Virus record (IMG/VR): IMGVR_UViG_3300045988_159113
Length of the DNA stretch: 64,000 nt
Direction: 5' to 3' (one strand)
Source of the DNA: a virus
Of this stretch, positions 1 to 64,000 are shown piece after piece. A model generated the notes under the pieces. It was given only the letters and a program-made list of their open reading frames with translations, had not been told where the DNA came from and ran no database searches. How positions within the stretch are numbered: the first letter of the stretch is position 1; each line of letters opens with the position of its first letter. The translations under genes were made by a program, and so were the position numbers.

Positions 1-3000
1 TAAGTTCTGGGCTAGATTTTACATAAGAATCTGCCATAAATGGAGAACCACCTATCAACAAATCCCATTTCCCGTTTGGCCTTAATATTGCACAAATCTC
101 TGCATTATGATTGATTCCATGTGGATCAATACCAAATCGAATTCCAAGAGTTCCGTCATCGTTAATCTTTGCAATATACTTTTGCGAACCATCGCTTGCA
201 ACCCAAGGAATCGGCATGAGTTCTAATTCTTCACCATCATATTCAATTTTGATTTTTGGATCACTCTCAAATGCAGATATGGCTTCGTCGATATTAAGAA
301 CAAATGAATCTATTCCGCTATTAACGTACCCATTATTGTTTAATATATCAAAAAGCTATTCAAACGATAGTGTGTTGATATCTCCATTTTCATCAATATA
401 TTGAATAGTGTTTGCGTCTTCGTCAAAATTTAAAATAGTGATTTTTTTATCTGTAGTTGAATAAGACAACCCCTACGTGACACTTGCCTTGAATACATCA
501 AATGCAGAAGGAATAACCGGTGGAGGAGTTAATTTGATTAAACCTCTAGTGATTCGATCGTTAAACTCATCATAATCCATTGTGTGTTCTGTTGTTGCAT
601 CTGAGTATTTAATATCTACCTATTTTGTAGCTTTTACTACTACATCAATAAATGTATGCTCCTCTATTGTTCCAGGCGAAGTTTCCATGTAAAATTTAAT
701 GCCTGGAGTGTATCCTTTTGCTTGCATCTCGCCAAGTCTTAAAGACCTTTCGATTGCCATTTCTGCTGCATTCCACGTAGTTCTTGGAGCATGGCCTCCT
801 CCAGTTCCACCACTAGGACTTGGTCCAGAACTAGGTGCTGGAGATGGACCTGATCCAGGTACAGAAGTAGTTGGTCCGGTTCCAGGAGTAGGACTTCCTC
901 CAGGTGCTGGAGATGGACCGCTGCCTGGTGTAGGACCAGAACCAGGAGTAGATCCTTGAGTAGTAGGTGCAGCAATAACTGTTCTTTCTTTGTATTCAAC
1001 ATCATCACTGGCATTTGCCAATGCTGCAGTCAAAATTGTTTCTTTCTTTATTGCGTAGTTTTCAATTGCTTTTTCTGAAAGTTTTTCTAATTGATACGAA
1101 GATTCTTGTTCACAACTCAAATTTATACGACCAGAACCATCGATTGATTGAATATTCGGATATACAGTATTCCCTATGCTGTTCGTAAAATTTAAAATAG
1201 TAGCAATTTCAGAACGAGTTTGTGCAGTATATAAATCTTTCAAGAATGATTTCGTACTTTTACTTTTTTCAGATCCTACGTCATCAATGTTAAAATCAAC
1301 AATGTAATATTTACCTTCAGATCCTTGAGCAGATGTACCAGGATACATTTCTATTTTATCAGCATAATGAGTTGTCAAATATTTGTACATGTCACTATTT
1401 GTGTCATTATAGATGTATCCAACTTTTTCTCCATCTGCTAATTTTGCAAACATTGAATCTATAAATTTATGGTCAGCGCTAGGATTTATTGTTTGAATAA
1501 AATCACCAATCAAACCTTCATCATTAGAATAGTAATATTTTAGTTTTACATCACCACCAGATTTGTTTTCTTGTAATGTTAAAAGCTGTTTCCCATTGAT
1601 GTTCTTCAGATTGTTTCTTGTGCGCATTGAGAGTCCCATCTTGTAACTATGGCAAAAATTTTGACGTTCAATTTCGCTTTCCCATTTATACATTACACCA
1701 TTCAACTCTACATCAAATGCACCATATGACTATGACTGATTTGTGTCACCAGATATAATTACAGCAATACCATGTCTTTCTGCAAATTTTTGTAGAAGAT
1801 CAAGTTCACAACTATTGAATTGTGAAATTTCATCTATTATTATAATTTTTGGAGCATCACTTTTTGTTGATACATTAAATTTGGCGCGAAGTTCATTTTC
1901 ATCATCAAATTCAAGATCTTCACTTTTAACATTAATTGTACCATCTTCGTTTACGCTGTATATTTCATAATCTGGTGCAGCATATTTCATCAGCTATTTT
2001 TTATTCATTACATTAGCTGAATCTACACCACAATCTTCTGCAAGTTTTTGTGATTTTTCTGTAGATTTTACATTGTCTGCATCATTATATCTATCTGCAC
2101 CATGACAAACAATTGCGCCTTCAAGAAGATCAGGACGATATTTCTTGATCATGCTTACAACCATAGCGTCACACGCTGTAGTTTTTCCAGTTCCAGGACC
2201 TCCTTCATTAAGCACAAAGTTTTTGTATCTGAAAAAGCCAAATACATTCATGATGTATTTATCGTTCTCTGGTTTCAGCAAATTTGCATATTCCCTCTTA
2301 AAATTCTTTATTGCTCTTTTATCTGCTTCTGAAAAACTAGCCCATTCTTTCATTATGGCCTTCTTGACCGCAGACTCAAACTTTGTATACATATCACCAT
2401 TGAACACAAACGCAACTTGGTTCAAAATATTTGCCTCTTGTGTTGTTATTGGAGCATATTTTGAATTTATGGATTTTCGTGTATTCAAATACATTTTGTG
2501 TAGCTTGCTTGACTTTACCGCTGCACATCTCATTAAATATGTAACAAAAGCAATAGGATCAACTTCATTCAAATTTTTTGTCAATGAATAGGTCTTGTTT
2601 TCATAAAGATTCAATTTTCTTGGCTTAATAATTCTTGCCAGTTCATCTTCTGTTAAGCTATTAAATAAATCGTAGAGTTTGTCCTCAATTCGAAGAGACT
2701 ATTTTGTTATATTGATCTATTCTTCTTGACTTGGTACTGACGTGATTCCAGAATCTAGCAATCCCTACAAAAGATTGCTTTTATTCTCTAGAATATCTTT
2801 CAATTCCTTAAAATGAACGTTGTTTTTTATATCATCGTCATCATCGTCCAAAATCTACACAAATGTTTTCACGCCTTTGAAATTCAATCTGTGCAAATTC
2901 ATTGACACTTTATCTTGTTCTTGTAATTTCTGGCCTTCGTTTATATCCATCAGTGTCTTAGCAAACTAAACTTTTGCTATAAGAGCATCAACATCATTCA

Positions 3001-6000
3001 GAAAAACATCAGCTATATCTTTATCAATCTCGGCTAAATCTGTCCAATCCTCAGTACCCTATGCATGATTGATATCATTCAATGCTTTACTATATCCATA
3101 TATATTTAAAATGTCAGCATTATCAACTCTTGATCCACTGATAGCAGCACGATACATTTTTAGTAATTCCAAAGCATTATCAAATGCTTCACGCATTGTT
3201 GGATCAAACTAGACATCTCGCAAATTATGCTTTGCATTGTCCATTGCTGTATATGCAGCATTTATTAATTGGAGGATATCAGTGTACTATCCAGTCAAAG
3301 CAATTGAAAATTGTTTCAGACTTTCAGAGATTGGAGAATTCGCCTTTTCTCGTATAGCTATTTCTGCAGCTGCGAGTTTACTCTGTAATGATGTCAATCT
3401 ATCTATTACAATATCTTCGTCTTCAGGTGACAAAAATTCACCTGTTCCTTCTGTTAATTTCTTTAGTTTAGTTTTTACGTTTTCGTTTAAATTTTTTAAA
3501 AATGTCAAAAGTGCAGATTTTACTTCTGGATGCAAAAATTCCTAAGATGTAAACTTTTCAATAATTGAATCAAAATTATCGTAGAGTATGTTTTCTTGTT
3601 TATCCTAATAATCTTTTTGTTTTAGTTCTAGTTTTTCTTGTAAAGCTGGAATAGTTGGATCTGAATCATCTAATTCAGCGATTTGCTATTTGATATTATC
3701 AATTTCATCAGAAAGTGTATTCAAAAGTCCAATTTCATATCCCGATCCCTCTTGCTCTGTCAAAAATTCTTTGAGATAGTTTTGTTGAGAGCCTATTGCA
3801 TTCTGTGCATTTTCCATCCAGATATCTTCGCCAAGTTCTGTTGGCATATTAGACATCATGTACAGTTCATGAATCAGCTAAGTAAGACCTCCAACGGTTG
3901 CGTTGTTAGCCTGTGCTTTATATGCATCAGCCTAAGTTGATAAGATATTGCTTGTTCCGCGCAATACATCAACAAATTGTGTAGCAATGTCATGTATTTT
4001 TTGTTTACCTTCTCCATTTTTCAATTCGTTAAACTTCGCAACAGCATCGCTAATTTCAGACTCAGTTAATTCATTGTATTTTTTATCGTACAATTTTTCT
4101 GCATATAGCGGTAAGATTACAGTTGTCAATTGTCCACTCAATGCGGTATTCATTTCAAATAATGCATCTTGTATGTATTTGGCAGCGTGCTTTCCATTTA
4201 CGAAATCTTGCACTTTCTTTTGTGCTTTTTCATAATCTTCAGTAAGTTTCTTCAGCTGATTTTCCTCAATTATAGTAGTTTCCTCTTTCCTTTCCGCTGC
4301 TTTTTTAGCATCTGTTTCTGGTTCGTGCGAATGTTGAAAATCATTCAATAATTTAGAAGCTTTAACTAAATCCGTGCATGCTGTGTTAAATTGCTACAAG
4401 TACATTCCTGCTGTTGTTGCTTTTCTTAAAGCATAGAAACGTAAATCTTTCAACGCACTCTAATCCAAGAAACTATCGTCATCAATAGCAGCACCTTCGG
4501 CATTAAGAGTGTCAACTATCAAATCAACCTATTTTTTTACTGCATTCTTTATATCGATAGTTTGATTGTGTTTTTTATCGCCTGGTTTATAGATAATGTT
4601 GCCATCTTCATCTGTCGTAGTTTCGAAAGTCAAGCGTTTGTTTCCAATTTGTAAATCATTGAAATCCATTTTGTCAATTGACTTTTTAAACTCAGAAACT
4701 TGTTTCGGATCTCTGCATATACTGACCAATTCCTATATAGCTGTATCATAATCAAGGGATTTCATATATCGCATACCTTGATAGCTGGTGAATGCGTTTG
4801 TAAAACTACCACCAGCCATACCGCCAAAAAATGACATGAGATATCGGTCTTTTGCATTTTCCCAGGCCCCCATCTTATGCTCATCGTCTCCCTGCAACCA
4901 CTTTACTGTATTATAGCAAGATTTTGTAAAGTCAGCAGAAAGTTCCTCAATAACCTCTTCTATACCTTCGCCAAGTCCACCAGCCAATGTCGCTTTTGTC
5001 ATAAGGCCAGGTGTGCCATTGGCATATTCTGCCTTTGCTATCTTTTTACCAATATTGAACAAGCGATATATGTATTGCTTTTTACCCTCATTTGGCAATT
5101 TCTTGATTGAACGCTCAACAAGGTCACCTCCGGTGTCTTTCATATCTTGAGTGATAGCTTTAACTAAAGCCTTGTTTTTGAATTTATCAGCACGTAATTC
5201 AGGCAAGATCCATTCTCCTATTCCTGTATTTAAGATTGCGGCTTCTTGTGCAGCATACCCAATAGCGACCATTGCAGCTTCAAGATCAGTTGCTCCAGCT
5301 TCTTTTGCTTCACCATAAGTATCTAATGTTGTGATACCGTTCATGTAGGCCTTACTAAGTACTTCGCCAACCTTTTGATATCCTTTCAGGAAAGTGTTCA
5401 TGTCTCGCTCTGCATTTATTGCAGCCACAGCCAACAACTCATTTCTCGCTTTATCTGCTGAAAACTGATCAATAAATGTCCGCGATTTAGTGAGATCTTG
5501 AAAACGCCTCTCTGCAGCTGTTTTATATGCTTTTTCTATTTCTGCTGCTTTCTTCATTTGCCTTGATTCACTAGCGCCACCAATACCTTTGAAAAGAGCT
5601 GGTGCTTTCTCAAACAAGAAACGTTGTTCTTTTAGCTATGCTGCAACATCTCCTATCAGATTGATCCAGTTTTCAAGACACCAAGTGTTTTCCTGTGCAT
5701 ATTCACTTTTTGCCATCTGCCTGTTTAAAGACTTAGACCAACCTTCCATTGCAGATAATGTTGGACTATCGCTTCCAACAAGGATCTTACCAAGTGTTCC
5801 AAATAAGCCAACAGCTTGTGTTGCCACAGATAATCCGGCAACAGCTGGTCCAACATATGGAATGAACATGGTACCAACCAGTGCAGCATTTTTCAATAAA
5901 GTTTTGCCAACACCATTTTCTTCAAGATTATCAGAATCAAAAAAGTCGTATTTGTTCCAATCTGAACCGTCAACTGTTAAGGTATTCAATTTACTCAATA

Positions 6001-8608
6001 CACGCCTACCATAGATACTTCTGCCATCAAGATTTTCATAATAGAACGTGCCATTGTCATTGAGTTTCAAATCTCCTTTTTTATGTTCAATTGTTTCTCC
6101 GCTTATAGGATCCTTATGTGTTCCATCTTCGTCCCATTGTGCAAGCACACGAGTATCAAAGAAATCAGTGAAAAAGCTATCATTTGGAGAATCATGGTAA
6201 ATCGGTGCTGCGCCATTCTCAACTTCAACTGGATTTGCAAGTACTTTTTCTGCTTGCGCTATTTCATCAATTGACTTTGTCCTTTTACCAGGTTTACCAA
6301 GTTCGGCTATGCTGCTAGTAATTTGATAAGGATTTGACGCTTTGACAAATTCAGAATCAAAATCATCTCTCCTTTGCTTGTCAGGTGCGAAAAAGTTATC
6401 ACGATGAAATGAAACAAAATTTGAAAAATCCTGTTCTTGTTCCTATGTTGCCATTACATTATACATTGACAACACATTATCATAGAATCCTTTGAATTCT
6501 TTTTCATTAAAATTCCCACTTTCTGTTTTAAAAGCCTACTGTACCAATTCGTTACTTTTGTATTCATCGTAGTCTTTTACAGTGCTATTGTCTGCAGTAA
6601 TTCCAACAGTCTATAAATCACCCATGCTAAGGGTCGGATTTACGAGCACGTTAAGCAGCAAATCATTTTTCTTTTCCTCATTCATATGTCAAAGTTTTGA
6701 AGGATCAACATACCTTGCTTTTACATCATCTTTGTGTTTAGTTATCTATTGCTATGTCTCTATTACCTATGAATATGCAGGAGGTAACTTCTCACCTGAT
6801 CCAGATTGGGCAGAGAAATAATCAACTTTGACTGGAACAAATACGGTTCCTTTGTAATAGTGATCATGACCATTCCAATCGTACCAGTTATCTTCATCAA
6901 ATTCAAATCCTCCTTCACCATCTTTCTCCCAGTTATTCGCTTTCTTAATTTGGGCTGTGATATTTTTGATTCTATTGTCATCCTTAATCTCTTCCAGATA
7001 TTGATTTTCATCAAAATCAGCATCACCCATTGCCTTATCATATGCTATAGCATTGATGACTCCAAATCTTCTCCATGCTCCATTTTTTATCAACTGACCA
7101 GTCTTGTCATATGCAACCGGCAATTGATGTTGCTGATATACTTGGTTTATTTCGTCGACATGCTCAGCAATCTATTCTGGACTATTCATCAAGATACCTT
7201 TTTCTCTAAGTTCCTGATCAGCTTTCGTCTTCCTTTGCATAGCATCAAAATCTGGAGCAATCTCTCCTTGCTGTGCTTTCTCTAAATCAATAGGCATATC
7301 TACAGAATGAATAACGCTGTCATTGGTCAACACTTGATTCATTGTTTCAGGATTGAGTTTTTGACCGCCAATTGATGCATTAGTCCAATCAAGTATTCCT
7401 GTATACTGACTTTTTGTAATATCCTATATTGTTGAAATAGCGCCATATGGTGTGCCCTCTTTTGACACAATTGGTAAATCATTACCGAAAGTTTTAATGC
7501 CATCCACGGTTTGGTTTTGAATAACAAACTAGCTTTTGTTTCCGTAGCCAAGCATCCACTATGTTGCCACATTCATATCCTATCCATCTTTTGTTGCAGT
7601 AGCTTTTGCTCCTGGCTTATTTCCTGTTGTATCTTCTACAAGATTGCGATCAATAGTTTGTTTTGAAGATGTCGTCATTCCGACCTTCTGTCCAATGATG
7701 ACATTCTTGATATAATTCAGCGCTTCTTTATCACTTGCCTTTCCGCTTTTAATATGCAGCAACTATTTCGCATTTTCTGGCAATTGGTTATATATATAAC
7801 TGATTGCTTCCTGTGCTTGTCTTGCCTGTGTCTCTGTTAAAGATTTAATCTTATACAAGCCATCAACAGAAACAGACGCAATATCTTCGCCATTGTATGC
7901 CTTTTCAACAAGAGCCTATAAAGCTTGCTGTCTTTGCTATGTCTTTTTTGATATGTACTGACTTGATGATTCTTCATCTTTCCCTAGACTCATCATGTAC
8001 TATTTGATAAGTTTGTCAACTTGCTCTAACCCAATGCCATTGTTGACTATTTCCATTACCGTATTATCATATGCTGAATTTTTATTTTGTGCTCTATAAT
8101 CCAACAGATTAGAATTTGTGTAAAGGCTATATTTGCTTGGGTCCTGCAAATATGTTTCTATCTTTATTGGTTTAGGCTCATTTTTTTCGTTACGAACAAA
8201 CACATATCCTCCTTGTCCTATAGCAACCTCATTTAGGCCCTTGTTCTAGCTCACAGTCTTGTATGCTTTATCATATTCCTGTTTATTAAATTCTGCGCGT
8301 TTAAGGTCATGCATAGCACTAAGATATTGTGTCGATAAATCACCAGTGCTTATTCCGAGATCTTGCAAGTCAAAAAACCTTGACAATCTGGAGTATATCT
8401 GTTCCATATCAGAAGGTAAACCTTTAATATTTCCAAGAAGATTCATCAAGTCCTTATTCGTAAGTTGTCCCTTGTCTTCTTTTGTTTTTGTTGTAGTATC
8501 ATCGGTTTCCACTTGTCTGGATAGTCCCAAATCAACAGTCACTGGCCTATATACTGAGAACGGGGGCATTGATCCCCCGCTCTACATCTAGTTAATTTTA
8601 TATATCAT
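1..8608 (-). CDS. Giant virion-associated protein B, partial (>2,860 codons; 3' end lies beyond the window start), read with TAG=Gln; contains an SF1-helicase-like P-loop NTPase module
   Basis: Twelve track ORFs (620..1705 through 8246..8569) share one minus frame. The junctions I hand-checked (620, 1730, 1994, 5636) are single TAG codons. Hand translation of 2..620 and 2614..2790 in that frame shows TAG but no TAA/TGA; other gaps not scanned. ATG 8606-8608 overlaps the upstream TGA (ATGA). Walker A GPGTGKT ~2186-2206; Walker B IIIIDEISQ and GDTNQ ~1736-1846; DADFD (DxDxD) ~7010-7024; Gly/Ala-rich hydrophobic stretch ~5700-5900; P/G/S/T linker ~740-960. Confidence 0.75.
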
Positions 8609-11600
8609 TTTATGAATCGTTTAATTGCATTCAATTCATCCTTTGACAATCTATCTATTGATTTTGATAATAATTTGCAACTATCAGCTATTTGCTTTGC
8701 AAGTCTATCATTGTTACTTTTTGATCTTTTCACATCAGTATCATCTATTTTTATGCCTTTCTTTGCTTCTGGTATACCTGTAACAGTATAGCTATCAATC
8801 GATCTCTTCGTGGGTGAACCAGAACGCAAATCCATCATATTGTATAATTTCAAGCCCTTTCTCTTAGCCAATTCATTATATATATCAATCTTGTCTTGCA
8901 GTCCTTTTGTTGCTTCGTACTATTGCAATTGAAGCTTCCTCTTGTAGAATTCCTCAGGTGAAATATTCGGATCAAGCAGCGATTTCTTCAGCTTGTTATA
9001 TTCAGGTCTGCTGTTCATCCATTGCTAGAAATTAAGTGGCATCATTATACTATCATACTTGTTTTGTGCATATTCTTTCTTTTGGCGATCTTGCGCCCAA
9101 AGCGTTCCACGCGTATTTTGAATTGCACCAAGATAATTCTGCGTGCTGTCATTGTCATATGCAATATATGCTGACTTTGCCCTTGTCTTATTGTTTGCAA
9201 GTTCTGCTAATGCAGCACTATTCTATGTCTATGTCTTGAGATTATCCTGATATACATTTTGATTCAGACTGAGCTAATTTTCACCAGTCTTGTACATCCG
9301 ATCATTATATATAGCATTGCCCTGCATATTCATCTTACCAGCTGTACTTGCACCTTCAAGTGCTGCCGCATTGTTTATATTTGCATCAGATGACTTTGCT
9401 TTTCCAGCTTGTGATTGAATCTGTGCGCCTTGCTATCTTTGACTCTCTTGACCGAGGTAATCACCATATGTATATCGGTGCATGTTCATCGGATTCTTTA
9501 ACGAAGTCCTGATGTTCAACATTTCCTGAAGTCTGCGCTTGTTATTCTTTCTGTTAGAAAGATAACGACCAAATCCAAGTGCATCGTATGCAAGCTTATT
9601 CATATTGCCATCAAGATAGGTTCGCACTTTGTTGAGCCAATTACTACCTTCGCCTTCTCCATCTCCACCAGTATTGAATCCACCACCGCGTCCGGTATTT
9701 TCTCCAGTAATCTCTCCAGCTGCAGGTTTTGGTTTCCCTTCATTCATTAATGAATTAGCCTGTTCTTCTGTTAACTTTGCAATATCACCATTGGCTTTTT
9801 TATATACATATGCAGTTTCACCATTTGACAATTTAATAGGATGAATTCTTGACATCTTACCTTCAAGTGTATCCTTGTCCCACTCTGTCTTATATCGGTC
9901 CATTCGACGCATCCAGGTTTGGGTTCCCATTGTGTCATCGATATTGTCCTGATATCCAATGTTCCAGTTTATACCTCTATTATTTGAATTTTGGCTTCTA
10001 TTATAGAACATCTATTTGAACAATCGGTTGTGATCTTGTATATTCTGGCCTTTATCGGTGTTTGCACTGTATGCCGTATCTATAGTTGAGCCATCAGGCT
10101 GCACACCCCAGAAACTCCTGATCTTACCAGCATCTGTGTTGTAATGACTTATGAAATCATCGATATTGTCAGTGTTATATGCTGTTTGATAGTATCGCTG
10201 CAAATCATCGCCTACTATATCTGCTTGTGATGTATATGCGTCATTTTTTGCAGCAGCCTGTCCAAGATCGAAATTTTTATTGTGATCATTTGCATTCAAA
10301 TCAGAATTTGCAAACTGGTTCCTATTTCTAAGATTTGCATTTCCAAGATTCTTCTATTTCCACAGGTCATTATACCATGCCCAATCTTCTGGGTTCTGTA
10401 CAACTTTATCTCCGTCTGCAGCCTTTAAGATGCCACCTTTAGCGTTAGATGATATGGCGGTGGAATCAATATCATCTGAGGTAAAATTTACGTCACGCAA
10501 AGATCTCATGCGTTCAAGAACACCACCATGCTTAAATGGAGGTGCTGTTGTTGTACTGCCTCCAGCGGGTGTTGGTGCAGTAGTAGCTGATGGTGGCGTT
10601 GTTGGTGCAGCAGTTCCTCCAGTTGGAGCTCCGCCTGTTGTTGGCGTGGTAGTAGTACCGCCTCCTGTGGTGGGTGTCACTGCAGGTCTCGGCCTTGGAC
10701 GTGTTGTTCTCGGTGCTTTTACTTTAATCTCTATTGAATCATCGGCATTCATGATTCTATCCATCAAATTGTCAAGATCAACAAATGAACCACGCTTTGC
10801 TTTCCTTATCGCATTAGCAAATTCAGCTTCAATGTCAGCTACTGTTTTACTTGTTCCGTGAACTTCTTGCAAAAGATAATTTTCTATATCGATTTTTACA
10901 TCTCTGCCATTCACATCATGCAAATTTTCTGGAAGCATATCTTTTAATCTGTCAGTCACAACATCAATATCTCCAAGAATCTGATTTTTCTCTGTTTCAG
11001 TTTTGACGGTCAATTTCCCTTTTAGCTTTGTGCTTAATTTATTATTAGCTGCGGCAATCTAACTTTTAGCAGCATTTTCTGCTCTTTGTGCGTTTGCTTT
11101 ATTTATTGCGTCCTTTGTTTGAGCTCTACGTTCAATAAACTGTCTTGTTTTTGTATTGAGTTCATATTCACTCATATCTGGATGTCTTGTTTTCAGATTA
11201 TCTCGTCTTGCTTGTGCGTATGTCTATATTTCTGCAATTTCGTCAGGATCGAAACCATAGCTTGCAACTTTTCTGGCTGTTGCTTTCTCTGCGGCTTCAT
11301 CAGTACGTATAAGTCTTAACTCGTTCTGTATATCTATATCTGTCAATGCAGAACCTGTTCCAGTTTTAGAAAACTCATCATTGTTTTTGTTTATATAATC
11401 ATTGAGTTTCTGCTTTTCAGAATTTGTCAATCCTCCACGTGTAGCCTCTGCTGCTTCTAAACGGTCAAATGCTGATTTGTTAGCATTATATCTATCTCTT
11501 AAAGCTCTAAACTCAGCCTCTGATACGGTAGAGCCAGCCGCTCTTGCTCTAAGCTCTGCATTATTAGACATTTCTGAACCAGCTGATGCCTTCCATGCTT

Positions 11601-14600
11601 CAAGCTCGCCAAGGGATTTTGCAGTATCAAATTTAGTTTGAAGTTCTGCGTTTACAAGTGCAGTATGCGTAGGATCATTCGATAATTTATAAACAGCCGT
11701 GACATCAGAATCATCAGCTGCTGCTATACCATTGCGACGTGCATAATCAGCAAGATCATTCAGTTTTGTTCTTGATGTAGTAGTAGCGTATAAATCATCA
11801 GCTATCAAATTGCCGGCTGCATCTTTTGCACCATATGTTCCAACTCTTCCCTCAATGAGTCTTTGATTTGCAATTTCTCCAGACTTCAAGCCTCTACCCA
11901 TATCTTCGCGAAGCATCAATGCTATATCTATGTCATCAGCATATCTTGGCGTTGCTGCGTTCGGATCAAAATTAGGATCAATCTTGCCGGAATAATATTC
12001 ACGAAGTGCCTTCTGCTGTTCAGGATTAAGACCATCAAAAAGATTGTCCATGATCTTTGGACCAGCTCCTGCAGTTCCTTTCAGATATTCTTTCGCAAGT
12101 TGTGTCTTCTTATATTGAGGCTGTGGGCCATGCACTCTTTCATAATCTGCTATATAATCAAGCACTGGCTGCTTATCTTTTCTTGTTCCAAACCAATCCT
12201 GGAATTGCTTTGCATCATATGCTTTTGTTCCGGGTTTTCCAGCCTGTTTTTCAATCTCTCTTTCAGTTATTATTTTGTTATCGAGCATATTATCAGTCCT
12301 TGTTCTAACTGCTCCCATGCCACGCGACATTTCAGCATTGGTATTGAGGTAATCCATGGCCCAACCTAAACCTTTACCTAAGTATGCGCGATCAGCTGCT
12401 CTTTGGCCAACTCTCATTCTAAGATTGCGCAATCCATCGGCAGTCTTTGGATCATAAGCGTACCCACTTTTAGTTTTCATTCCATCCCAGAATCCAACCT
12501 CATCGGTAAAGTCTCCAATCTTCGGACCACGTTTGAAATGACTTGTCCAACCTGTTGCCTTAGTCCAACCATCAGGCATAACAACAGGAGCATTTGGATT
12601 TACACCAACAGATATATCATGAGCTTTTACTTGGTTCAATCCTTCAAATTTAGATTTGGCAGCATCAAGTCCAGCAACTTCCTATAATTCAGCAAGTTTT
12701 GTATCATATGCTGTCTTTTCTGCAGCACTCAAACTTGATATTTCAGTATCGGCAGGCTTGCCGATTCCTTTCATGACTTGATCTTTGCCTATTGCATCAG
12801 CTGCCGTCTTATATGCTGAACGCATATTCTTTTGATCCTATACGCTCAGTTTTATTTCTGCTGCATTACCGTCTACATCAACCATATTCAAAACTTTTGG
12901 AGATGTAGGATCAGCATTGTTTGTCAACCAATTGCCAGCATGGACATCATCACTCCAAAGTACATTTGCCTAATGTCTTGTGTTAGAGTACTACAATGCT
13001 TGTTCTGGAGTTCCTGCTTTAGCCCAAGCTTCACCGACAGCCTTATTGACACTTTCTGATGTTGCGCCTTCTGCTTTTACAGCTTTATCAAAAGCTGCCT
13101 TCATTGCTTTCTTCTGCTTAGCTGATACTTTTATCTCGTTGCCATTAGCATCAGTGAAAAGGAAACTATTGCCACGTCCTGCGCCTTCTGATGTTGATGC
13201 CATAGGCTGATAAAGACCTCTAAATGCAGCCTTCGCATTTCTACCAGGAGATAATGCAAGGATAGGATCACTGACAAACGCTGCTGCTTTTCCTGCTATA
13301 TTATTGCCAAATTTAGCTGCAGCTTGTCCAGACAGTGATTTGGTACCAGTAGCAGCTCCGGAAGCCATAGAATAATAAGCATCAAGTTCTCGTGCTTCTT
13401 CGTGAGAAAGCGTGCCTGCTTTATCCTTTGCTCTCAACTCCTTGATTCTATCGAGATTTGACAGAACATTGTAAGCACCCAAGCCTGTCATTCCGAGCTG
13501 TGCTGCTGCCTTTCCTGCTTTTACAAGACCTCCACCAGGTATGAGCATCAAGCCGGTCATTCCTGCGTTTATAGCAAGGTTGCGCATCATCTCACTACGC
13601 GATACGCTGTCATCCATTGCATCAGCTATTAAGTTGCCGACTGTTCCAGCTGTTCCTCCAATGGCACCTATAGCATTACCAATAACAGGAACAAAAGAAG
13701 CAATACCGCTTGCAATATCAAGGTTTGTGCTCCATTTGCGAAGAGATGAACCTTTTTGAGTTCCGGCTTTTTGCTTGCCTTTCTTTACATCTTCAACAGA
13801 CATATTCCTGGCCTTAGCTTCTGCTTCGTATCTCAGTTCACGTTCTGCATCGTTCTACTGATTAGCTTGCTGTCCAAGAGCTGCAAGATCATAACCACTA
13901 GCAGCTTTGATAATTCCACCTGTACGCAAAGCTTCAAGTTTAGCACCATATTTAGCCCAGACATGAGCGCCTCCAGCTGATGTTCTACGACGTCTTGGAT
14001 TCTTCTTTTGATATTCAGATTTTAGATACTGGTATAAAAGTGGAGTTTCTGAATCACTCACATGTACTCTAGAGAATTGTTTTGTTTTCTTGTTGTACAT
14101 CAAAGCGGTTCCGTTCTCGTAGTTTATTGTTTTGTTAAGATAGAAACGATCCTCGTCAACAGGCGTGATATAAGAAGGATTCTTTTCAAATTCCATCATG
14201 ATACCACGCAAAATATTAGAGTTGGTCATTCCATTGGGGCCTAATTGGTTAGGATTAATACGCTGTCCATTCATAACCAACTCGAGCAACTTATCTGCAT
14301 ACTGTGCGTTTCTCTGATCAGAAAGCCAAGATGGTGTAGAATCAGCCTCGCTAGTTCCAGAAATGCCGCTCCATTTATCATGCATTGCCTGATCCCAAGC
14401 TCTGGTATCAAGTTGCTGCTCTTCATTGAATGTGTCGCCTGTCCATCCCCAGTGATTGTTTGCCCAATTCTAATAGTTGCGATTGTATGTTGCATCTCCG
14501 TATTTTCTATCTTTCCAATCTTCCGTGAATTCCTGAAGTGCTGCACGGTACTCTTCTTGAGTAATAACTCCTGCCTTGAGCTCTGCATCAAGCTCCTTCT

Positions 14601-15447
14601 TCTTCATCTTGAGCTGATTATTGTATGATTCAGGATCATCATCAACTTCCTCTTCTTGACCATTGCCAAGTAAACGTTCACGTAATGATCTGCCAAATCC
14701 TATAGCGTCTAATGCTGTTGCATCATTATTGTCGTATGTTCCATCTGCTAATGATGCGGCTGCTTCTGCGAGCTTCTGCTTATAATCTGCAAGATCATGG
14801 AATGCACTACCCTGAAAATCAAACGAGTCATCGTTTAGAGTTCCTGCATAATCGGTAAGCATCTGTGCAAGAGCGTTTGCTCTATTTGTATTACCACGTA
14901 CTCCATTATCGTCTAATGCATCACGATCAACCCAAGATTGAAGATCTGCATCCTCATTTCCGCCATAGAATCTATTCCAGAAATATTTTCTAAGAGCGCC
15001 AAAGTTATACTTTTCTTTTTCTTTAGCTTTAGGTGCTTCATATTGAGGCGCTGATTCCAAAATCTTGTCTAACAAGCCAAGACCATATGATTGCATCTTG
15101 TTATCATCTCCAAGAAATGTTCCAGAGTAGATCATACCATCGCCACGTCTCAAAGACCCATCACGCAGTCCTTGCTGGATTTTTGCAGCTTCATTCAAAA
15201 ACTGATTATATTTCTTGCTGCCTCTACGGAATCCTATATGCTCAGCAAACAAAGGAATATTCTTTTCGTAAAGTTCTGCAAGCTTAGCAGCATCATATTT
15301 CCCACTTGATGTCTAAAATAATACGGGCTGCTCTTCATCGGAAACGGGGGCCTCTACAACTACCTATTCCTTAGGCACAGATGGATCACTTCCAACTACC
15401 GTTCCGCCTGTTTGTAATTTTTTAATATATTGACTCATATTTTGCAT
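8605..15447 (-). CDS. Giant virion-associated protein A (2,280 aa with TAG=Gln), function unknown (cargo/ejection-type protein suspected)
   Basis: Track ORFs 8605..8871, 9433..10011, 10012..10299, 10354..11013, 11224..12639, 12991..13803, 13855..14385 and 14470..15252 share one frame. Breaks at 9433, 10012, 10354, 11224, 12991, 13855 and 14470 are all TAG. Gap 8872..9300 was hand-translated: 5 TAG, no TAA/TGA. ATG 15445-15447 is preceded by an in-frame TAA; the gene ends at TGA 8605-8607. T/P/G/A linker ~10560-10700; glycine-zipper-like hydrophobic region ~13500-13750. Confidence 0.8.
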
Positions 15448-36673: not shown

Positions 36674-36691
36674 AATTCATTTTTTCATTTT

Positions 36692-36727: not shown

Positions 36728-36762
36728 TATCTATGTAATGGTATAATAATCTTGAAAATCAA

Positions 36763-36779: not shown

Positions 36780-36830
36780 ATTTATTTGTTTTTGCGATAC
36801 ATTAGAGCTCTCTCAAGATAAAGCTGCGAT

Positions 36831-37746: not shown

Positions 37747-37875
37747 TTAAGGATTAAACACAGCTACGCCAGAGTATCCCCATGCGATAAGCTTGCTAGC
37801 GGCTACGGGGCTGCTTACTGCGCCGCCCTGGAGACCAGTCTTGCCGCCTACGCCCAGGATTTCGTTCTGGATGTA
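37747..37875 (-). CDS. Capsid exon 11 (YIQNEILGVGGKTGLQGGAVSSPVAASKLIAWGYSGVAVFNP*)
   Basis: Starts right after the predicted terminal G of I10 (ATTAACATTTTTG|TAC). Open to TAA 37747-37749. GC-rich like the other exons. Confidence 0.65.
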   Translation of the reverse strand, partial: YIQNEILGVGGKTGLQGGAVSSPVAASKLIAWGYSGVAVFNP

Positions 37876-44452: not shown

Positions 44453-44474
44453 AAAGGTTATCGCACCTTATCGA

Positions 44475-49187: not shown

Positions 49188-50100
49188 ATGCGTGGTCGCC
49201 GTTTCCTGACATGTCGTTTAGTCCAACGATGTCATCAATATCTCTATCATACAAGAATAAACGCCAGCCATTAAAGTTTATTAAAAAGTTCGTCTCTGTA
49301 AGAAGGAATGAATCCTTATGAATATAAAGATCGCCACGTGGTGCAAGACTTGTCATTTTTCCTTTAAATGGTATATACATACCTTTTGGAATAAATAACA
49401 TAGTCAGCTTTGAACCTCCAAACAAATCATCTGGGAAATGATTCAAAGGGAACAATAGCAGAAAGCGATGATCTCCTTTCCATGATTGGATGTCCTTATG
49501 TATAGAACTGTAAAACATCGAGTTTTTGTTTGGCGTCATCTGACTACCATCTTGTGTTTTATATCTGATGACATCATAGTTTGCACTGCTCATAAGAATA
49601 GGATTTCCTACGCTATCTTTATAAAACAGAGAAATACCCCAATTGTCGCTAACGCTATCAGGATGGTGTATTTCCTTTATCTTTTGAATAAATGGAACAT
49701 ATGCCTTTCGTGATGTACTAAGCATTACGCGCACAGATGTCTTTTTTGTTGGGTTGATCGTCACCATTATATATTTCATGTCAGCAGTTTTCTTGAAATC
49801 TGTCCATGATGCCAACGTTGCGCTTAATGACTTAACAAGCTAAGATGAGGAATTTAAAATAGAGCACGACTGCGGCTTGTCTCCATAATCCTTAAAACAT
49901 GCGAAAGAATACGTCTTGCCATTTTCAAGGTCAGAAATATCAGCTGTAAATGTTGCAGTGCTATACGTTCCTTTGTAGCAGTGAATCTCGCTTCCTCCTA
50001 CGACACTTGAATTTCCTGTTTTTGTTTTAAAGAAAATGAGATTGTCAGTGTTCTATCTTATCCAAATCTTGCTAAAAATTTGTTTTTCTTCTACTGCCAT
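49177..50100 (-). CDS. Hypothetical protein (307 aa, two TAG)
   Basis: Track ORF 49177..49815 extended upstream in frame through TAG 49840 and 50053 to ATG 50098-50100, which lies 2 nt after the upstream TAA. Confidence 0.65.
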
Positions 50101-50102
50101 AA

Positions 50103-51590
50103 TTATAAAATATGCGCACCAGCCATGATGTCATATTTATCAAGTATGCCTTGGATACGTTTAATCTTCTTGTTCATATCACAAGATAGCTGTTTACCTC
50201 CGACATATATATCGTGTTTTTCAACATTGATAAATAAAACGTTTGCATAGTGCTTGTTAAAAATTAATTTAAGATACAAATCATCGTCAAGTGCGAAATC
50301 TTTAATCATATCGTAGTCGATAGCGTCCTCTAGAATATACGGAGGGATAAATGTCCCACCGCATCCAGTAGGAAGTAAAGAGCGAGTAGCTACACCTTGC
50401 GCACCACGAAATACTGGCCACTCTCCGTATGGCTTGATACTTCCGTCAATATCCATAGAAATCAAACGGCAACGGCCAGAGATAACACATCCCGGATTTC
50501 TTTGCCACCAGGTAAACATTCGCTGTATCATCGTGTTTTCGTATTCAACATCATCGTCTACTAACAAGATACAGCGATCGTAGTATTCAGTGGCTGCATA
50601 GATCCATTTGTTATGTGGTCCCATATCATCAATAACTGGGTGGACTTCTATATCTCCAGCTTTAACAAGATCAAGCAACTCCTGAGACATGTTTTTTACA
50701 TCATCAACTGGAATATTCAGAATGAATTTTTCCGGTCTCATCGTCTGCCTTAGAATGCTTAAAATCGCCGTCATGGAGTTATTCATCCTTTCGCCATATG
50801 TTGCCATAGATACAACAACACCCGGCAGTCTCTCCTGCAGCTTCTCCTTATATTGTGGAAAATGTGCAGCGAGTATGTTATGAATCTCTGTGTATTTCTC
50901 CTTGTTGACATCTGCCAGGCAATCCTCTTGGTTTGTCTGTATGTCATACCTACATATACCGTTTTCATAAAGTGATCGGTAACGTCTACCAGATAACACA
51001 CAAAACAAAAACTGCCACGTCTCATCCGATGTAGGAGAAAGTGCCATGAATTTTTCCCTATCAAAGAATAAAGGAGAGGTGAAAGTGTGAGCTGGGTATA
51101 AAGTGCCAGCTGCACCATTTGCCGGTTTCTGGTTTATTGTTGGAACGCCTCTGAGGTATATATTGTCAAAATTTCTGATTTCTCGCAGGCTTCCGTCGCG
51201 TTCGGTTATTACTACACTCGAAGTTTGCCCGTAAATAATATCCTCTGGGTACTTCTTATGCATCTCTATAAATTCATGTAGCCATCCTGGCCTCATTGTC
51301 ATATCATCATCAACTACAAGTATGGCGTTATCTGGGTATCGTTCGAGAGTTGGGATGAGTTTCTTATGGCTTCTTATATTGCCTTTGTCCCATATTATCT
51401 CAACGCCGAAATCCTCGCGCAAATCCTTTGGCAAATCAAGTTCCAGATTCGGGAACTCATCCTCGGACAATACGAGGACGAAATGCACATCGTCTTCTTT
51501 CTGTCCGAGGATTATATTGTAAATGTCCCGAGTAGTACCTATTCGCTTTGGGTATGATGTCATACTTACGATTAGTGTATCATTATTCAT
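50103..51590 (-). CDS. Tandem-duplicated GT-A-type glycosyltransferase (495 aa, no TAG)
   Basis: Intact track ORF. Two homologous halves are each anchored by a DDD motif: (IVSMTSYPKRI...ILVVDDDMT) and (VVSMATYGERM...ILLVDDDVE). The ATG overlaps the upstream TGA (ATGA, 51587-51590). Confidence 0.75.
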   Translation of the reverse strand: MNNDTLIVSMTSYPKRIGTTRDIYNIILGQKEDDVHFVLVLSEDEFPNLELDLPKDLREDFGVEIIWDKGNIRSHKKLIPTLERYPDNAILVVDDDMTMRPGWLHEFIEMHKKYPEDIIYGQTSSVVITERDGSLREIRNFDNIYLRGVPTINQKPANGAAGTLYPAHTFTSPLFFDREKFMALSPTSDETWQFLFCVLSGRRYRSLYENGICRYDIQTNQEDCLADVNKEKYTEIHNILAAHFPQYKEKLQERLPGVVVSMATYGERMNNSMTAILSILRQTMRPEKFILNIPVDDVKNMSQELLDLVKAGDIEVHPVIDDMGPHNKWIYAATEYYDRCILLVDDDVEYENTMIQRMFTWWQRNPGCVISGRCRLISMDIDGSIKPYGEWPVFRGAQGVATRSLLPTGCGGTFIPPYILEDAIDYDMIKDFALDDDLYLKLIFNKHYANVLFINVEKHDIYVGGKQLSCDMNKKIKRIQGILDKYDIMAGAHIL

Positions 51591-54253
51591 TCTTCTAAAA
51601 CAAAATAGAAAACACCAGCTCTTGGTGTCGTTGAATTAAATTGTGATTCTGTAACTGCTTTAAGCTTATCGCCCCAAGGTATGTCAGAAGTGGTAAGCTT
51701 TCTAAATGTTGCCGTTCCGGTTCCTGTCGTAGGTGCTGCAAGAACTGTATTTTGTGCTCTGTTGATATTCTTTTCATAAGCTGGAACGTTTACGAAAAGA
51801 CAACCTGATCCATCACTCTCTACACCTCTGTAATCGGAAGCTCCGCTAGTTATAGGCTAAAGAGTAGGAGGTGTTGTTCCGTGCCCATACCCAGAGATTT
51901 TTGTTGGATCTATAGATCCTGTGTAATCTTTACAAGTTCGAACCATACCAGACGTTCCACCTCCTGCAGTTGGGAGGGCACGCCACTCACCTGTACCGTT
52001 ATTTCCACCATTAAGCCATCGAGATGCGCTAAGACTATCATTTATTGTTCCTGGAACAATACCAGCAACACCTTTAGCCAATTTAGGAATATCAGCAGCA
52101 TCTCCCTTTGCGCCCTTTATATTGCAAACAAGTACCCAGTTAAAAGATGACTGCTCTGCATTTGCAGCTTTAAATACATCACATGTATGAGTGTTGAGAT
52201 ACATGTCGCCAACCTTTGCATTTGTAACTGCATGCACTCCAGCATTTGGAACAGCAGTCCCAGAGTGCCATGTGATAGTTGCTCCAGTGTCTCCCTTCTG
52301 ACCTTTCAGATTATTGAACGTAAAGGTTGTAGTTGCGTCACTTGTTGTTGCCGAAACTGTAGGAGTCCCGACGCTATTAATATTACCGCCTGCAGCTGCT
52401 TTAATAGTTGGAGTTGTTCCATTCGCTCCCTTGATATTACAAACACCGGCCCACTTATTGGTTCCTGTTGATTTATACACGTTGTAGGTTTTCGTGTTCA
52501 GGTACATATCACCTGTTTTTGCACCAGAAACAGTTGCTGCCGTACCAGTCACGGCTGTGCCGGTATGCCATGTTACAGTAGCGCCAGTGTCTCCTTTCTA
52601 TCCCTTTAAATTATTAAACGTGAAAGTTGTGGTCGTCCCGCTTGTGTTTGCTGTAACACTTGGAGTTCCGACAGCTCCGATATTACCACCAGCTGCTGCC
52701 TTTATGGTCGGGGTTGTTCCATTGTTTCCTGGCGTTCCTTGTGGCCCCTTGATATTGCAAAGATAAACCCACTAGTTAGGAGCGGTTGCCTTATATACAT
52801 TACTTGTTCCAGTGTTGAGGTACATATCCCCAGCCTTAGAACCAGAAACGGTAAATGTTTTAGCAGTGGTAGAGGTGCCGGTAACAGCACCGCCAGAGAA
52901 CCATGTAGCAGCAGCTCCAGTTGAACCTTTCGATCCATTCTTTACTGTTATCGTTGAGCCGTCTGTGAAAGTGTAGACATTACTACCGCCATCTGCTGTT
53001 GAAGTTGTGGTTTGCTTTCCGCCTTTTTGAAGATAGTTTGAAAGGTCAACGGTTCCGCTGAGATTGTCCCATTTACTACCATCCCACACAACGTTGTCGC
53101 CAGCTTTGATATTATTAGTTTTGTCTGCCTTTGTTATGTTCCAGACATCACCAATATTATTCCCTGAAGTTGGAAGTTCGGAATAATTGGTTTTTGTGCC
53201 TTTGTATTTATAAATTGTGGAGATGTCGGACTTCTTGGCGTAGTTTTTGAGGTAATCAAGTACTGCGTTTGTTGTTGGTATGCCATAAAAGTTATCAGTA
53301 TCGTACCCTCCTATTCTATCAACGTGCCCGAATTCCAAATATCTATTATTTTGTACATCATACTAACCTCCCATCATTAACGACGTATTTGTTCCGTCAT
53401 CAAAAATACAATTTGATATTTCAATAATCGAATTTGGGTCTAATTGATAAAATCCAAGCTCAGGTACATTGCCAACCATATTTATATTTGAGCATGAATC
53501 AATATGAGTACAAATTACACCAGATAGAAATATAGTATTTGAAGTTTTAATATTAATTGCTATATTCTAAATAATAATATACGCACTATTTACAATAGAT
53601 GACACACCAAAATCGTTAACGCTTGTTAACTATCCTTTTATACGTATACAAGAAGAATTGGAAATCCATGCAACCGTTCCATTATTAAGAGAAAGCGTTG
53701 GCATAGTAATGAAAATACTTTCATCTAATGCATGGCTATAATATAAGTTATCTGCCACAAACATTATACACGAAATACTTATTTTTGCAGAATCAGATAA
53801 CTAACAATCGTATATATATAAAACAGCATCTTCACTGCTAATTATTCCTTCTCCTCCAATCGTTCCATTCTTAATCGTCAATGTACCTGTCAACTATGTC
53901 GTCCCGCTCAACGTCAGCGTGTACCCATTCAAATCCAAAACACCTGTAGTAATAGGCAAAGCTGTCAAATCGCTTGATGCTATAAAGTCAGCCTTTGCTT
54001 TTGGATTCTTTCCTTTAAGCGCAGCATTGATTACTTTATTCTATACAGCATTTACTGATGTGTCATTAAGCACAGAGTCAATAGTCATGCCTGTCGGTAT
54101 CTCTCTGGAACAAGCCTTGACCTATCCGCTACTATCTACATATACAGGTTTCGTAGGCGAACCGATCTGAGCACTTACCGCCAACTTATCCGACACCCTA
54201 GCATGTAATGTATACTGGTTATTTCCAGTTTGTATTTTTCTAATATCAGACAT
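51587..54253 (-). CDS. Tail fibre/spike protein (888 aa): beta-helix-like N-terminal half and three ~100-aa tandem repeats
   Basis: Track ORFs 52772..53338 and 51857..52552 are in the same frame. Region 53339..54253 was hand-translated from ATG 54251-54253: TAG only. The motif GDMYLNT..Y(K/F)..W..CNIKG..G recurs three times. Confidence 0.75.
52150..53000 (-). repeat. Three diverged ~300-nt tandem repeats inside the fibre gene
   Basis: Protein repeats T(W/V)(F/T)(S/W)(G/H)..GDMYLNT...CNIKG..G..PTIKAAAGGNI..VGTP.V.A.TS..TTTFTFNNLKGQKGDTGA. The nucleotide similarity is visible by eye. Confidence 0.6.
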
Positions 54254-54317: not shown

Positions 54318-55508
54318 TTACTGAACAGTAACAGTGTGGTTGTGATTTCCAGCATCGGTAGTCTGAATTGTGCTGGGTGTGCCAGCGCCCAACTTGGGAG
54401 TACCAGATACGGAAACCGTACCCTCGGTGCCAGTGAATACAGCCTTGAGGCCAGTGGTAGCAGTGAATGTAGGAACACTTGCAGTTGCGCCAGAACGAAG
54501 AGCTGTTGCAACAGTTGCGCCAGTGCCATCTGCGGCAACCTGACCAGTTGCGTATGTAAAGTCTGCTGCACCCTGAGCAAATACTGCTGTACCAACCTCT
54601 ACACTTCCAGCAGTAAATTCTGCGCCAGTCAGAGCATCAGCAGTAGTCAGGCTATGAGTTACACCAGTAACAAACTTATTAGCACACGATGCGCCAGTCA
54701 AGAATGTTTTAGTAGGTGCAGATGTATTAATCGAAGACTTACCCATAGCAAGCACTAAACATTCACCATCAGCCTGATATGTTGCACTTTTCACAACATC
54801 TTCAGCCATAGAAGCTGATACACTCGTAACTGCAGCACTAGTAGTCTTGTCGATAGTAATACCGTCAGTAGGAGCGGAAACAGTTCCGCCTGTTACGAAT
54901 TTACCTTTGGTTACCGTATGTGTTGGTGCTGTATATTCAACACTTGTTATAGCCTTTCCTGTACCAGTTACACCCTTTGCTGTTGCAGTCTTCAACTTTG
55001 AAGTAGAACCACCAGAAAGCGTGATAGTAGGAGCACTTACAGTTCCTGAAGTCTTAACTCCATCAGCAGCAGCTGTAAGAGTAACAGTGCCAGCGGGTGT
55101 ATACTTACCAGAGAAAGTTGAAGCTGCGCCAGTATAAGTTGGAACAGTTACGCTATGCTTATGTGTACCATTGCTTGAAGTTGTACCAGCTGCGCTGTTC
55201 TTACTTGCCAACTTGCCGTATGCATTAAGAGCATCGAGCAGGCACCACTGCTTGGTTGATGTCTCGCCTGACTTCTTCTCAATCCACACATACTCGGCCT
55301 TGTCATGTACAACCAAATCACCAACACGAATGTCAGCAGCTGTTGCCTTAGCACCGTAGATGTCGGTTGGTACCTGTGTGCCCTCATTTGTAATGGCTAC
55401 AGTTGTTATACCTTTAAATTTAAGAGTGTTAACAATCGCGTCACGAGCGACTGAGTCCTTGATGTTATAGACGGTTCCACCAAGGTTAATTTTACTAATA
55501 TCTGCCAT
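54318..55508 (-). CDS. Fibre protein, Thr/Ala/Gly/Ser-rich (396 aa, no TAG, GC-richer)
   Basis: Intact track ORF, ATG to TAA. The N-terminal module MADISKINLGGTVYNIKD is duplicated at 55680-55947. Confidence 0.8.
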   Translation of the reverse strand: MADISKINLGGTVYNIKDSVARDAIVNTLKFKGITTVAITNEGTQVPTDIYGAKATAADIRVGDLVVHDKAEYVWIEKKSGETSTKQWCLLDALNAYGKLASKNSAAGTTSSNGTHKHSVTVPTYTGAASTFSGKYTPAGTVTLTAAADGVKTSGTVSAPTITLSGGSTSKLKTATAKGVTGTGKAITSVEYTAPTHTVTKGKFVTGGTVSAPTDGITIDKTTSAAVTSVSASMAEDVVKSATYQADGECLVLAMGKSSINTSAPTKTFLTGASCANKFVTGVTHSLTTADALTGAEFTAGSVEVGTAVFAQGAADFTYATGQVAADGTGATVATALRSGATASVPTFTATTGLKAVFTGTEGTVSVSGTPKLGAGTPSTIQTTDAGNHNHTVTVQ

Positions 55509-55526: not shown

Positions 55527-55947
55527 TTATTTTGAATCAGAAATGATTGTGAATACGTTATCATCCAGTAGTGTTTGTAATCTTCTATATTTTCCTTTAA
55601 ATAAAATATAGATATCTCCATTGTCCATAATCTCAAACAGATTTTTCCTGTCTGTATCAGAATAACTGCTTACCAAGCATGCACCACTGCTTGGTTGATG
55701 TCTCGCCTGACTTCTTTTCAATCCATATATACTCAGCTTTGCCATATACAACCAAATCGCCAACACGAATATCAGCAGTTGTTGCTTTATCACCGTAGAT
55801 ATCAGTGGGTACCTATGTGCCCTAATCTTTAAGGGCTACAGTTGTTACACCTATAAATTTAAGAGTGTTAACAATCGCGTCACGAGCGACTGGGTCCTTG
55901 ATGTTATAGACGGTTCCATCAAGGTTAATTTTACTAATATCTGCCAT
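55527..55947 (-). pseudogene. Chimeric, frame-broken fibre gene remnant
   Basis: 55680-55947 is a diverged copy of the 5' ~85 codons of 54318..55508, in frame from ATG 55945-55947 to TGA 55657-55659. 55527-55670 is a copy of the 3' end of 55954..56652 (..SDTDRKNLFEIMDNGDIYILFKGKYRRLQTLLDDNVFTIISDSK*), in a different frame. Confidence 0.6.
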
Positions 55948-63866: not shown

Positions 63867-64000
63867 TATCCAAAATTAACGTTGTCATTATATGGATTGC
63901 CGTCATGTAGTTGCTTGAGCTCTATGTCAACCTTCTTATTATCAACGGCGATATTATCTTCTTTGTATTTCTTGTCTGCCCTCGCGTTGTACCACCTAAT
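63866..64000 (-). CDS. 3' end of an upstream gene (partial)
   Basis: The open minus frame ..IRWYNARADKKYKEDNIAVDNKKVDIELKQLHDGNPYNDNVNFG* ends at TAA 63866-63868. Confidence 0.5.
   Translation of the reverse strand: MRWYNARADKKYKEDNIAVDNKKVDIELKQLHDGNPYNDNVNFG

Follow-up and report, generated by a model that had tools for sequence, protein, structure and literature searches.

The 64,000-nucleotide stretch of virus record IMGVR_UViG_3300045988_159113 (called the window below, meaning the whole stretch that was analysed) is the late gene module of a large, divergent crAss-like gut phage, in which the amber codon TAG is read as sense and most likely encodes glutamine. We propose that this code (genetic code 15) is implemented by a tRNA-Gln with the anticodon CUA carried by the phage itself, a reading to which we give a probability of about 0.93. 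TAG-to-Gln recoding of late genes in crAss-like phages is already well documented. A sequence-only reading of the window had taken TAG for a sense codon throughout and glutamine for its most likely meaning; the analysis below concerns the reading frames, the amino acid inserted, the tRNA that may insert it, and the genes in which TAG is rare.

The window has a G+C content of 39.6%, and nearly all of its long frames lie on the minus strand. When TAG was treated as sense, stop-to-stop open reading frames (ORFs) of 2280, 2229, 2002, 1330 and 891 amino acids (aa) were obtained, against a maximum of 510 aa under the standard bacterial code (code 11). Treating TGA or TAA as sense brought no comparable gain (longest frames 510 and 530 aa). 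Greedy non-overlapping tiling under code 11 gave 120 genes with a coding density of 78.1% and a median length of 96 aa, while code 15 lowered the number of genes to 56, raised the density to 94.8% and the median to 230 aa, and placed 58.1 kb of coding sequence on the minus strand. Over the 19,071 codons of the 42 genes on the minus strand that have 90 codons or more there are 169 in-frame TAG and neither a TAA nor a TGA; per 1000 codons, TAG occurs 8.9 times, CAG 16.7 times and CAA 15.3 times. The count of 42 comes from the first tiling and leaves out the gene at 29225-30277, which is assigned to the minus strand from homologues in two relatives and which the stop-to-stop ORF listing gives as TAG-free. 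The code-15 genes end on TAA (25) or TGA (16) and on no other codon. Off frame, TAA and TGA together occur at 6.6% per codon, so that a 2280-codon frame free of both would be met by chance with P ~1e-68. TAG is uniformly placed along genes (Kolmogorov-Smirnov p = 0.49), as expected of a sense codon, and for eight genes the C-terminus predicted by code 15 is reached to within 1-6 residues by alignments to the standard-code relative MT835470.

The details on which the sequence-only reading had relied were recovered. The eleven positions that it named (620, 1730, 1994, 4733, 5636, 10012, 10354, 17060, 21150, 21906 and 22656) are all in-frame TAG codons of the minus strand; TAG occurs 5, 1, 6 and 5 times in the ORF-free gaps at 8872-9300, 23004-23315, 23949-24992 and 32044-32940, respectively, and both TAA and TGA are absent from them; and all the coupled overlaps (six ATGA, five TAATG) are present, among them the ATGA at 8605 where the start of the 639-aa gene overlaps the stop of the gene upstream. 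Its claim that only TAA and TGA end genes agrees with the terminators counted above. The word "throughout" goes too far: TAG is in frame in 29 of the 43 genes of at least 90 aa, 13 of the 43 have none, and a 9.7-kb block has a single exonic TAG.

If TAG were still a stop, these frames would have to be pseudogenes, split genes or products of occasional read-through, and beyond the fragmentation of the region by code-11 gene callers nothing speaks for this. The absence of TAA and TGA beside 169 TAG, and the improbability of the 2280-codon frame, argue against it; so do the facts that the frames are kept across strains with variation of a synonymous type, and that the standard-code homologues in MT835470 run uninterrupted across the TAG positions. 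Moreover, essential genes are hit: the capsid gene of the window has one TAG, and the large terminase (TerL) and portal genes of a sister strain have 12 and 11. We therefore give termination at TAG practically no probability. It is confirmed that TAG is a sense codon in the window, with a signal far beyond chance.

The residue encoded was approached first through a zinc-dependent alcohol dehydrogenase (ADH). The TAG at 17060-17062 lies opposite the conserved Q of the motif GGIxETQE in all four PDB alignments shown (3two, 1uuf (YahK), 5z0c and 6k3g), and the codon at this position is CAG in all five sister strains. These strains are five IMG/VR contigs (UViG_3300045988_*; 139-197 kb) that are about 95% identical to the window at 12-32.5 kb. 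Across the six genomes, TAG is present in at least one at 80 sites, of which 38 are fixed and 42 polymorphic, and at the polymorphic sites the alternative codon is CAG in 32 cases and CAA in 3 (35/42). CAG sites changed to TAG in 22 of 127 cases between strains and to CAA in 12 of 127; the former is of the same order as the yardstick rates of GAG-to-GAA (41/164) and TAC-to-TAT (39/146). Among the six strains, no exchange of TAG was seen with TAC, TAT, TGG, TCG or TTG, the codons of Tyr, Trp, Ser and Leu. It is thus shown that TAG behaves as a synonym of CAG and is exchanged with it at the rate of a synonymous transition.

Distant relatives point the same way. Opposite the TAGs of the window, the alignments to MT835470 and to the TAG-recoded MT835492 have Q most often (16 of 85), followed by K (11), E (10) and T (10); where the two relatives agree, the residue is Q in 5 columns, E in 2, T in 2, L in 1 and D in 1. 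Conversely, the TAGs of MT835492 most often face Q in the window (20). In a likelihood test, in which the substitution profile of each amino acid was taken from the same alignments, Gln ranked first, with Glu 20.6 and Lys 27.6 ln units lower. Internal repeats give a further comparison. In the fibre gene the repeat FTFNNLKG[TAG]KGDTGA, with TAG at 52598-52600, is followed by a unit that reads FTFNNLKGQKGDTGA, with CAG (Q) at the equivalent 52298-52300. In another paralogue pair TAG faces one Q and one E (GAG), and a further repeat position gives K. Of the three TAGs of the DUF192 gene, two face Q in each of the distant relatives, and for two the sister strains have CAG. Tandem TAG codons were also noted: the pair at 35643-35648 (codons 42-43 of the gene 34602-35771) faces Y-Q and N-Q in the two relatives, and a pair near 20200 in sister strain L013 corresponds to Glu-Asp (ED) in strain L012.

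The window itself contains no tRNA, and the sequence-only reading was right that no CUA suppressor is visible there; no CUA tRNA was found in the first 10 kb on either side or in either MT relative. In three sister strains (about 95-98% identical), a tRNA of 77 nt with this anticodon lies about 15 kb past window position 64000, at loci on contigs that align with the window at about 95% and that were reached by peptide-pattern scans along the sister contigs. It folds as a standard cloverleaf (Rfam RF00005, 47 bits), and all three copies are found by ARAGORN. Exactly one tRNA, namely that with CUA, was detected in the 20 kb examined in each strain (3/3), and in two strains it is conserved at 100% of the Rfam-aligned positions. 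Small TAG-free ORFs surround it, and TAG-rich genes adjoin.

Several features suggest that this tRNA is of Gln type. The same anticodon stem-loop occurs, without a difference, in a "tRNA-Gln" of crAss phage cr53_1 (also CTA) and in the unannotated crAss-like contig MT836720; from the bona fide tRNA-Gln(ctg) of Streptomyces phage Stella it differs within the loop solely by G36-to-A. In a blastn search of the phage collection, the matches that include the anticodon arm were to unannotated gut-phage contigs and to 16 annotated tRNAs, which were tRNA-Gln in 14 cases and tRNA-Gly in 2 (E = 0.6). The identity elements recognized by the glutaminyl-tRNA synthetase (GlnRS) of E. coli include G10, G2-C71, G3-C70, a weak 1-72 pair and U35; the phage tRNA has a weak A1-U72 pair, G2-C71, G3-C70, G10 and U35.

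A second possibility is that TAG is sense but stands for another residue (Glu, Lys, Tyr or pyrrolysine), or that its decoding is ambiguous. The frequency of K, E and T opposite TAG in distant homologues would fit this, as would the paralogue with GAG and the repeat with K; in addition ARAGORN labels the CUA tRNA "tRNA-Pyl", a label given from the anticodon alone. These hints are outweighed by the exchange with Gln codons (CAG or CAA) at 35 of the 42 sites that vary and with no Tyr, Trp, Ser or Leu codon, by the distance of Glu and Lys from Gln in the likelihood test, by the invariant Q at the ADH position in the alignments shown, and by an anticodon arm that is that of tRNA-Gln(CUG) save for G36-to-A. 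The anticodon stem of 5 bp, the D-loop of 12 nt and the variable region of 5 nt give the phage tRNA a fold unlike tRNA-Pyl, whose architecture differs in these respects. Pyrrolysine decoding was rejected on the normal cloverleaf, the Gln-type anticodon arm and the alignment of TAG with Gln rather than Lys (no search was aimed at the pylSBCD genes), and a residue other than Gln is in general very unlikely. From the ADH motif, strain polymorphism, distant relatives, the internal repeat and the tRNA, the assignment of TAG to glutamine made by the sequence-only reading is upheld as the most likely one.

A different question is whether glutamine is inserted by some other decoder, such as a host suppressor, a host tRNA modified by the phage, or inactivation of release factor 1. 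Such an alternative, which touches only the implementation of the code, would be consistent with a window that has no tRNA, with the recoded MT835492, in which six tRNAs but none with CUA were found, and with the literature, where suppressors are known in only about 40% of TAG-recoded phages. It is less easily reconciled with the finding that the sole tRNA detected in each of the three sister strains is the CUA one, and with its complete conservation over the aligned positions in two of them, which argues that it is functional. We consider another decoder unlikely. The preferred mechanism, a suppressor encoded by the phage, may be pictured as follows. A tRNA-Gln(CUG) would have given rise to the suppressor by G36-to-A. 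Judging from the literature, the product would be charged by the GlnRS of the host and, once expressed, would out-compete host release factor 1, so that late genes containing TAG could be fully translated only after the phage had switched the decoding of the cell. Its purpose might be to time the late genes or to damage translation in the host.

Several observations weigh against code 15 with a phage-borne tRNA-Gln and should be set beside it. First, the suppressor is known from sister strains and not from the exact genome of the window. Secondly, its Gln isotype is assigned by sequence resemblance and may be called probable. Thirdly, no CUA tRNA is present in the 121 kb of the recoded MT835492, from which it follows that a phage-borne suppressor is not universal in the clade, and no cellular source of the tRNA came to light when a collection of bacterial and archaeal genomes (185,579 of them bacterial) was scanned twice by pattern for its arms (0 matches). 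As regards the amino acid, a handful of strain differences put TAG against GAG, GAT or AAA, and Q occupies only 19% of the TAG columns in distant homologues, where Q itself is conserved at 31%; the low share reflects poorly conserved positions and is no proof by itself. Finally, the timing and regulation proposed for the recoded late genes are taken from the literature and might differ here.

The lineage of the phage was examined with its relatives. A megablast search with 20 kb of the window found no match among 50,697 GenBank phage records, and relatives were found by tblastn (MT835470 and MT835492) and by peptide-pattern scans of IMG/VR (the sister contigs). MT835470.1 (117 kb, standard code) and MT835492.1 (121 kb, TAG-recoded) come from human faeces and from the same study. 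ARAGORN found tRNAs for Asn, Asp, Met, Tyr and Ala in MT835492; an extra Rfam tRNA in it (L009, 12157-12221) proved by inspection to be tRNA-Thr(UGU). The sister contigs measure 139, 142, 143, 175 and 197 kb, and the longer ones may be concatemers. Just past window position 64000, the sister-strain TerL matches phrog_6681 (2.5e-71), and over about 83% of its length it shares 26-28% identity with annotated Crassvirales TerL; the portal protein also encoded there matches phrog_6547, and its sole PDB match is crAss001 gp20 (4e-17). These matches bear out the link with crAss-like gut phages, which the sequence-only reading had named among the phages known to recode TAG to Gln. For the major capsid protein, the orthologue from MT835470 was tested and gave a weak match to phrog_11589 (3.9e-11) and none in the PDB.

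Within the crAss-like phages, membership in the "Zeta" group is probable from shared features. Yutin et al. (2021, Nat Commun 12:1044, PMC7886860) described TAG-to-Gln recoding in Zeta, Beta and Delta crAss-like phages, with 243 crAss-like genomes recoding TAG to Gln or TGA to Trp, mostly in late genes and with suppressor tRNAs, and a Zeta capsid gene that group I introns divide and in which no recoded stop occurs. The phage of the window resembles the Zeta group in the gut origin of its relatives and its few GenBank homologues, in contig size (139-197 kb for its sisters, 145-192 kb for Zeta genomes), in a TerL and portal distantly related to those of crAssphage, in late-gene TAG-to-Gln recoding with a standard-code relative close by (MT835470 beside MT835492 and the window), in group I introns, very dense in Zeta core genes such as that for the capsid, which interrupt a capsid gene with hardly any recoded stop, and in giant ORFs of several thousand residues (3372 and 5068 aa here, just past the window start). 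A transcription block of giant proteins with an RNA polymerase beta-prime DxDxD motif is a further mark of the Zeta group. It differs in that the published Zeta capsid example has 5 fragments, and the capsid gene here about 10 exons. Recoding in Zeta is confined to a clearly delimited part, whereas here it is seen in every part of about 115 kb: TAG is present in every gene class seen over this length of the phage type, and no clean "standard-code early block" was found in the parts examined.

Borges et al. (10.1101/2021.08.26.457843) extended the pattern to phages more widely and suggested that it controls when late and lysis genes are expressed, and mass spectrometry gave Peters et al. (2022, PMC9523058) the proof that crAss-like phages read TAG as Q. 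The sequence-only reading had seen its own contribution in the pervasive recoding of the structural module, but this is already contained in PMC7886860 and 10.1101/2021.08.26.457843. The code-15 phages of PMC9523058 and 10.1101/2021.08.26.457843 share with the present one TAG-to-Gln, a phage tRNA(CUA) and TAG-heavy structural genes; no phage GlnRS has been detected so far, and the host is assumed to use the standard code. Unlike the phage of the window, which is known from sequence alone, those of PMC9523058 have been validated by metaproteomics. The window showed no recognizable lysis cassette, and no gene for release factor 2 was seen in the examined part of the genome (all but about 38 kb). 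The supE (glnV) suppressor of E. coli is a useful parallel: it too is a tRNA-Gln whose anticodon changed from CUG to CUA by G36-to-A, which continues to accept Gln and decodes UAG. supE, however, is a weak cellular suppressor that competes at genuine stops, while here the suppressor is phage-borne and TAG has been dropped as a terminator in the genes examined. The phAss-1 group ("Phassvirus"; Babkin et al. 2023, PMC10607447) is likewise from the human gut (about 136 kb); 28% of its ORFs show TAG-to-Gln, and it has tRNA-Sup(CTA) genes. It was considered as the lineage of the window and rejected as a siphovirus with dozens of tRNAs; it is unrelated, with a siphovirus-type tape measure of 3150 aa, 28-36 tRNAs and the suppressor in two or three copies, and no similarity between this group and the window was detected.

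TAG is unevenly spread among the genes. Twelve of the 13 TAG-free genes hold 104 CAA or CAG codons, which at a TAG share of 21.5% gives P ~1e-11. The largest TAG-poor island, 9.7 kb long, consists of a gene at 35819-36673, the major capsid gene, four endonuclease ORFs and a scaffold-like gene at 44475-45542; further TAG-free islands lie at 27290-28464, 29225-30277, 50103-51590 and 54318-55508. The capsid gene (37750-44437, minus strand) has about 10 exons and 9 insertions, mapped against the uninterrupted orthologue of MT835470, of which the residues IGDG were not located. Six of the insertions are compact group I introns scoring at least the Rfam RF00028 gathering score (54-89 bits), and the remaining three bear endonuclease ORFs. 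One micro-exon (42393-42376) of 18 nt encodes YVKYQS and is flanked by two back-to-back introns. Three of the four homing endonuclease ORFs have the motif ..KIY[IV]G[IV]HKT.. in common, and a Pfam scan of two gave NUMOD1 or NUMOD3 matches. All four are TAG-free within their likely coding parts and hence translatable under either genetic code.

The idea that abundant virion proteins avoid TAG, owing to inefficient suppression, found no support as a conserved rule, for in MT835492 the scaffold-like homologue has 18 TAG and the capsid gene 5. Only 3 TAG positions are common to the two recoded phages (the window and MT835492), which indicates that TAG codons turn over quickly and would imply their rapid or independent gain. 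In a comparison of three genomes, sites with MT835470 equal to MT835492 numbered 457 in TAG-containing and 128 in TAG-free or TAG-poor genes, those with the window equal to the standard-code MT835470 numbered 322 and 200, and those with the window equal to MT835492 numbered 318 and 127; the patterns of the two gene sets differ (chi-square p = 1.4e-8). The TAG-free islands might be imports from standard-code relatives, perhaps driven by intron homing and co-conversion, an idea we regard as doubtful, and gene-specific rate shifts would explain the incongruence too. If the idea were true, mobile introns would shuttle "code-neutral" sequence between co-infecting phages with different codes and reset recoding in the genes that they invade.

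The positions of these features, of the suppressor tRNA and of the principal genes are collected in the table.

Table. Features of the window (positions 1 to 64,000) and, for the tRNA, of the sister-strain loci L020, L021 and L022.
Feature	Position	Strand	Basis or remark
Late (virion) gene array, about 43 co-directional genes, code 15	1-64000	-	169 TAG
N-terminal 2228 codons of giant ORF	2-6685	-	26 TAG; ORF listing
639-aa gene	6689-8608	-	15 TAG, top TAG density in the window
2280-aa gene	8605-15447	-	18 TAG; seen only with TAG read through
Zn-dependent alcohol dehydrogenase (CAD/YahK/mannitol-DH type) with extension	16112-17986	-	Pfam ADH_N, ADH_zinc_N
DUF192-domain protein	17986-19098	-	3 TAG
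2001-aa virion protein	20673-26678	-	19 TAG; homologues in MT835470 (standard code) and MT835492 (TAG-recoded)
1300-aa protein with collagen-like stretch	30697-34599	-	17 TAG
TAG-poor island, 9.7 kb	35819-45542	-	single exonic TAG (44264-44266), in the capsid gene
Capsid exons 1-5	44437-44216, 42907-42587, 42393-42376, 42172-41972, 41760-41734	-	
Capsid exons 6-10	~41570-41517, 40031-39894, 39705-39514, 39301-39212, 37875-~37750	-	
Group I introns	39316-39522, 39708-39913, 41559-41743, 41769-41968, 42184-42385, 42407-42633		Rfam RF00028
GIY-YIG/NUMOD-type homing endonuclease ORFs, in or beside the capsid gene	37061-37726, 37927-39132, 40297-41361, 42949-44055	-	
Fibre gene with repeats, 888 aa	51587-54253	-	
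tRNA(CUA)	L020 4991-5067, L021 4944-5020, L022 2874-2950		ARAGORN, Rfam

Some of the genes deserve a further remark. The giant ORF cut by the start of the window is 3372 aa long with 40 TAG in sister strain L013, and downstream of it, outside the window, lies an ORF of 5068 aa with 66 TAG (sister loci L013 and L028). The ADH gene sits in the middle of the virion module. Its domain covers residues 1-356, within which its only TAG falls, and is followed in frame by an extension of 268 codons of unassigned role. The C-terminal ..DGRFVIKM described in the sequence-only reading is indeed in the read-through frame, but does not end the ORF, which continues through the extension to the TGA at 16112. 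In four of the five sister strains this extension is broken by TAA (codon 400 or 414) and/or by TGA (codon 490, in place of TGG). Recoding of TGA to Trp was considered for the TGG/TGA difference in the four strains and rejected, as it is confined to the extension, where three strains also have TAA, and truncation explains it more simply.

Between the head and fibre genes (48180-51590, minus strand) lie glycosyltransferase genes, one for a protein with GT32 (Gly_transf_sug) and GT2 domains (4 TAG) and one for a double-GT2 protein (0 TAG), which suggests glycosylation of components of the virion or of the host surface. In the fibre region, a 96-aa ORF (55657-55947, minus strand) copies some 90 residues at the N-terminus of the fibre-like gene next to it (396 aa, 54318-55508); two TAG codons stand in this ORF, against E and Q of the longer gene, which has no TAG itself. 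The 96-aa ORF may be the remnant of a cassette exchange.

For annotation, the result means that the default bacterial code breaks about 43 real genes up into 120 pieces (median 96 aa), and that four proteins of 1300-2280 aa in the window are misread by pipelines that do not test code 15. The exchange of TAG and CAG as a synonymous change is a population-level signature that identifies the encoded residue without proteomics. General knowledge of TAG recoding is unchanged by the phage of the window, which is a further well-supported case of a phage that uses one tRNA gene to rewrite how its host cell decodes.

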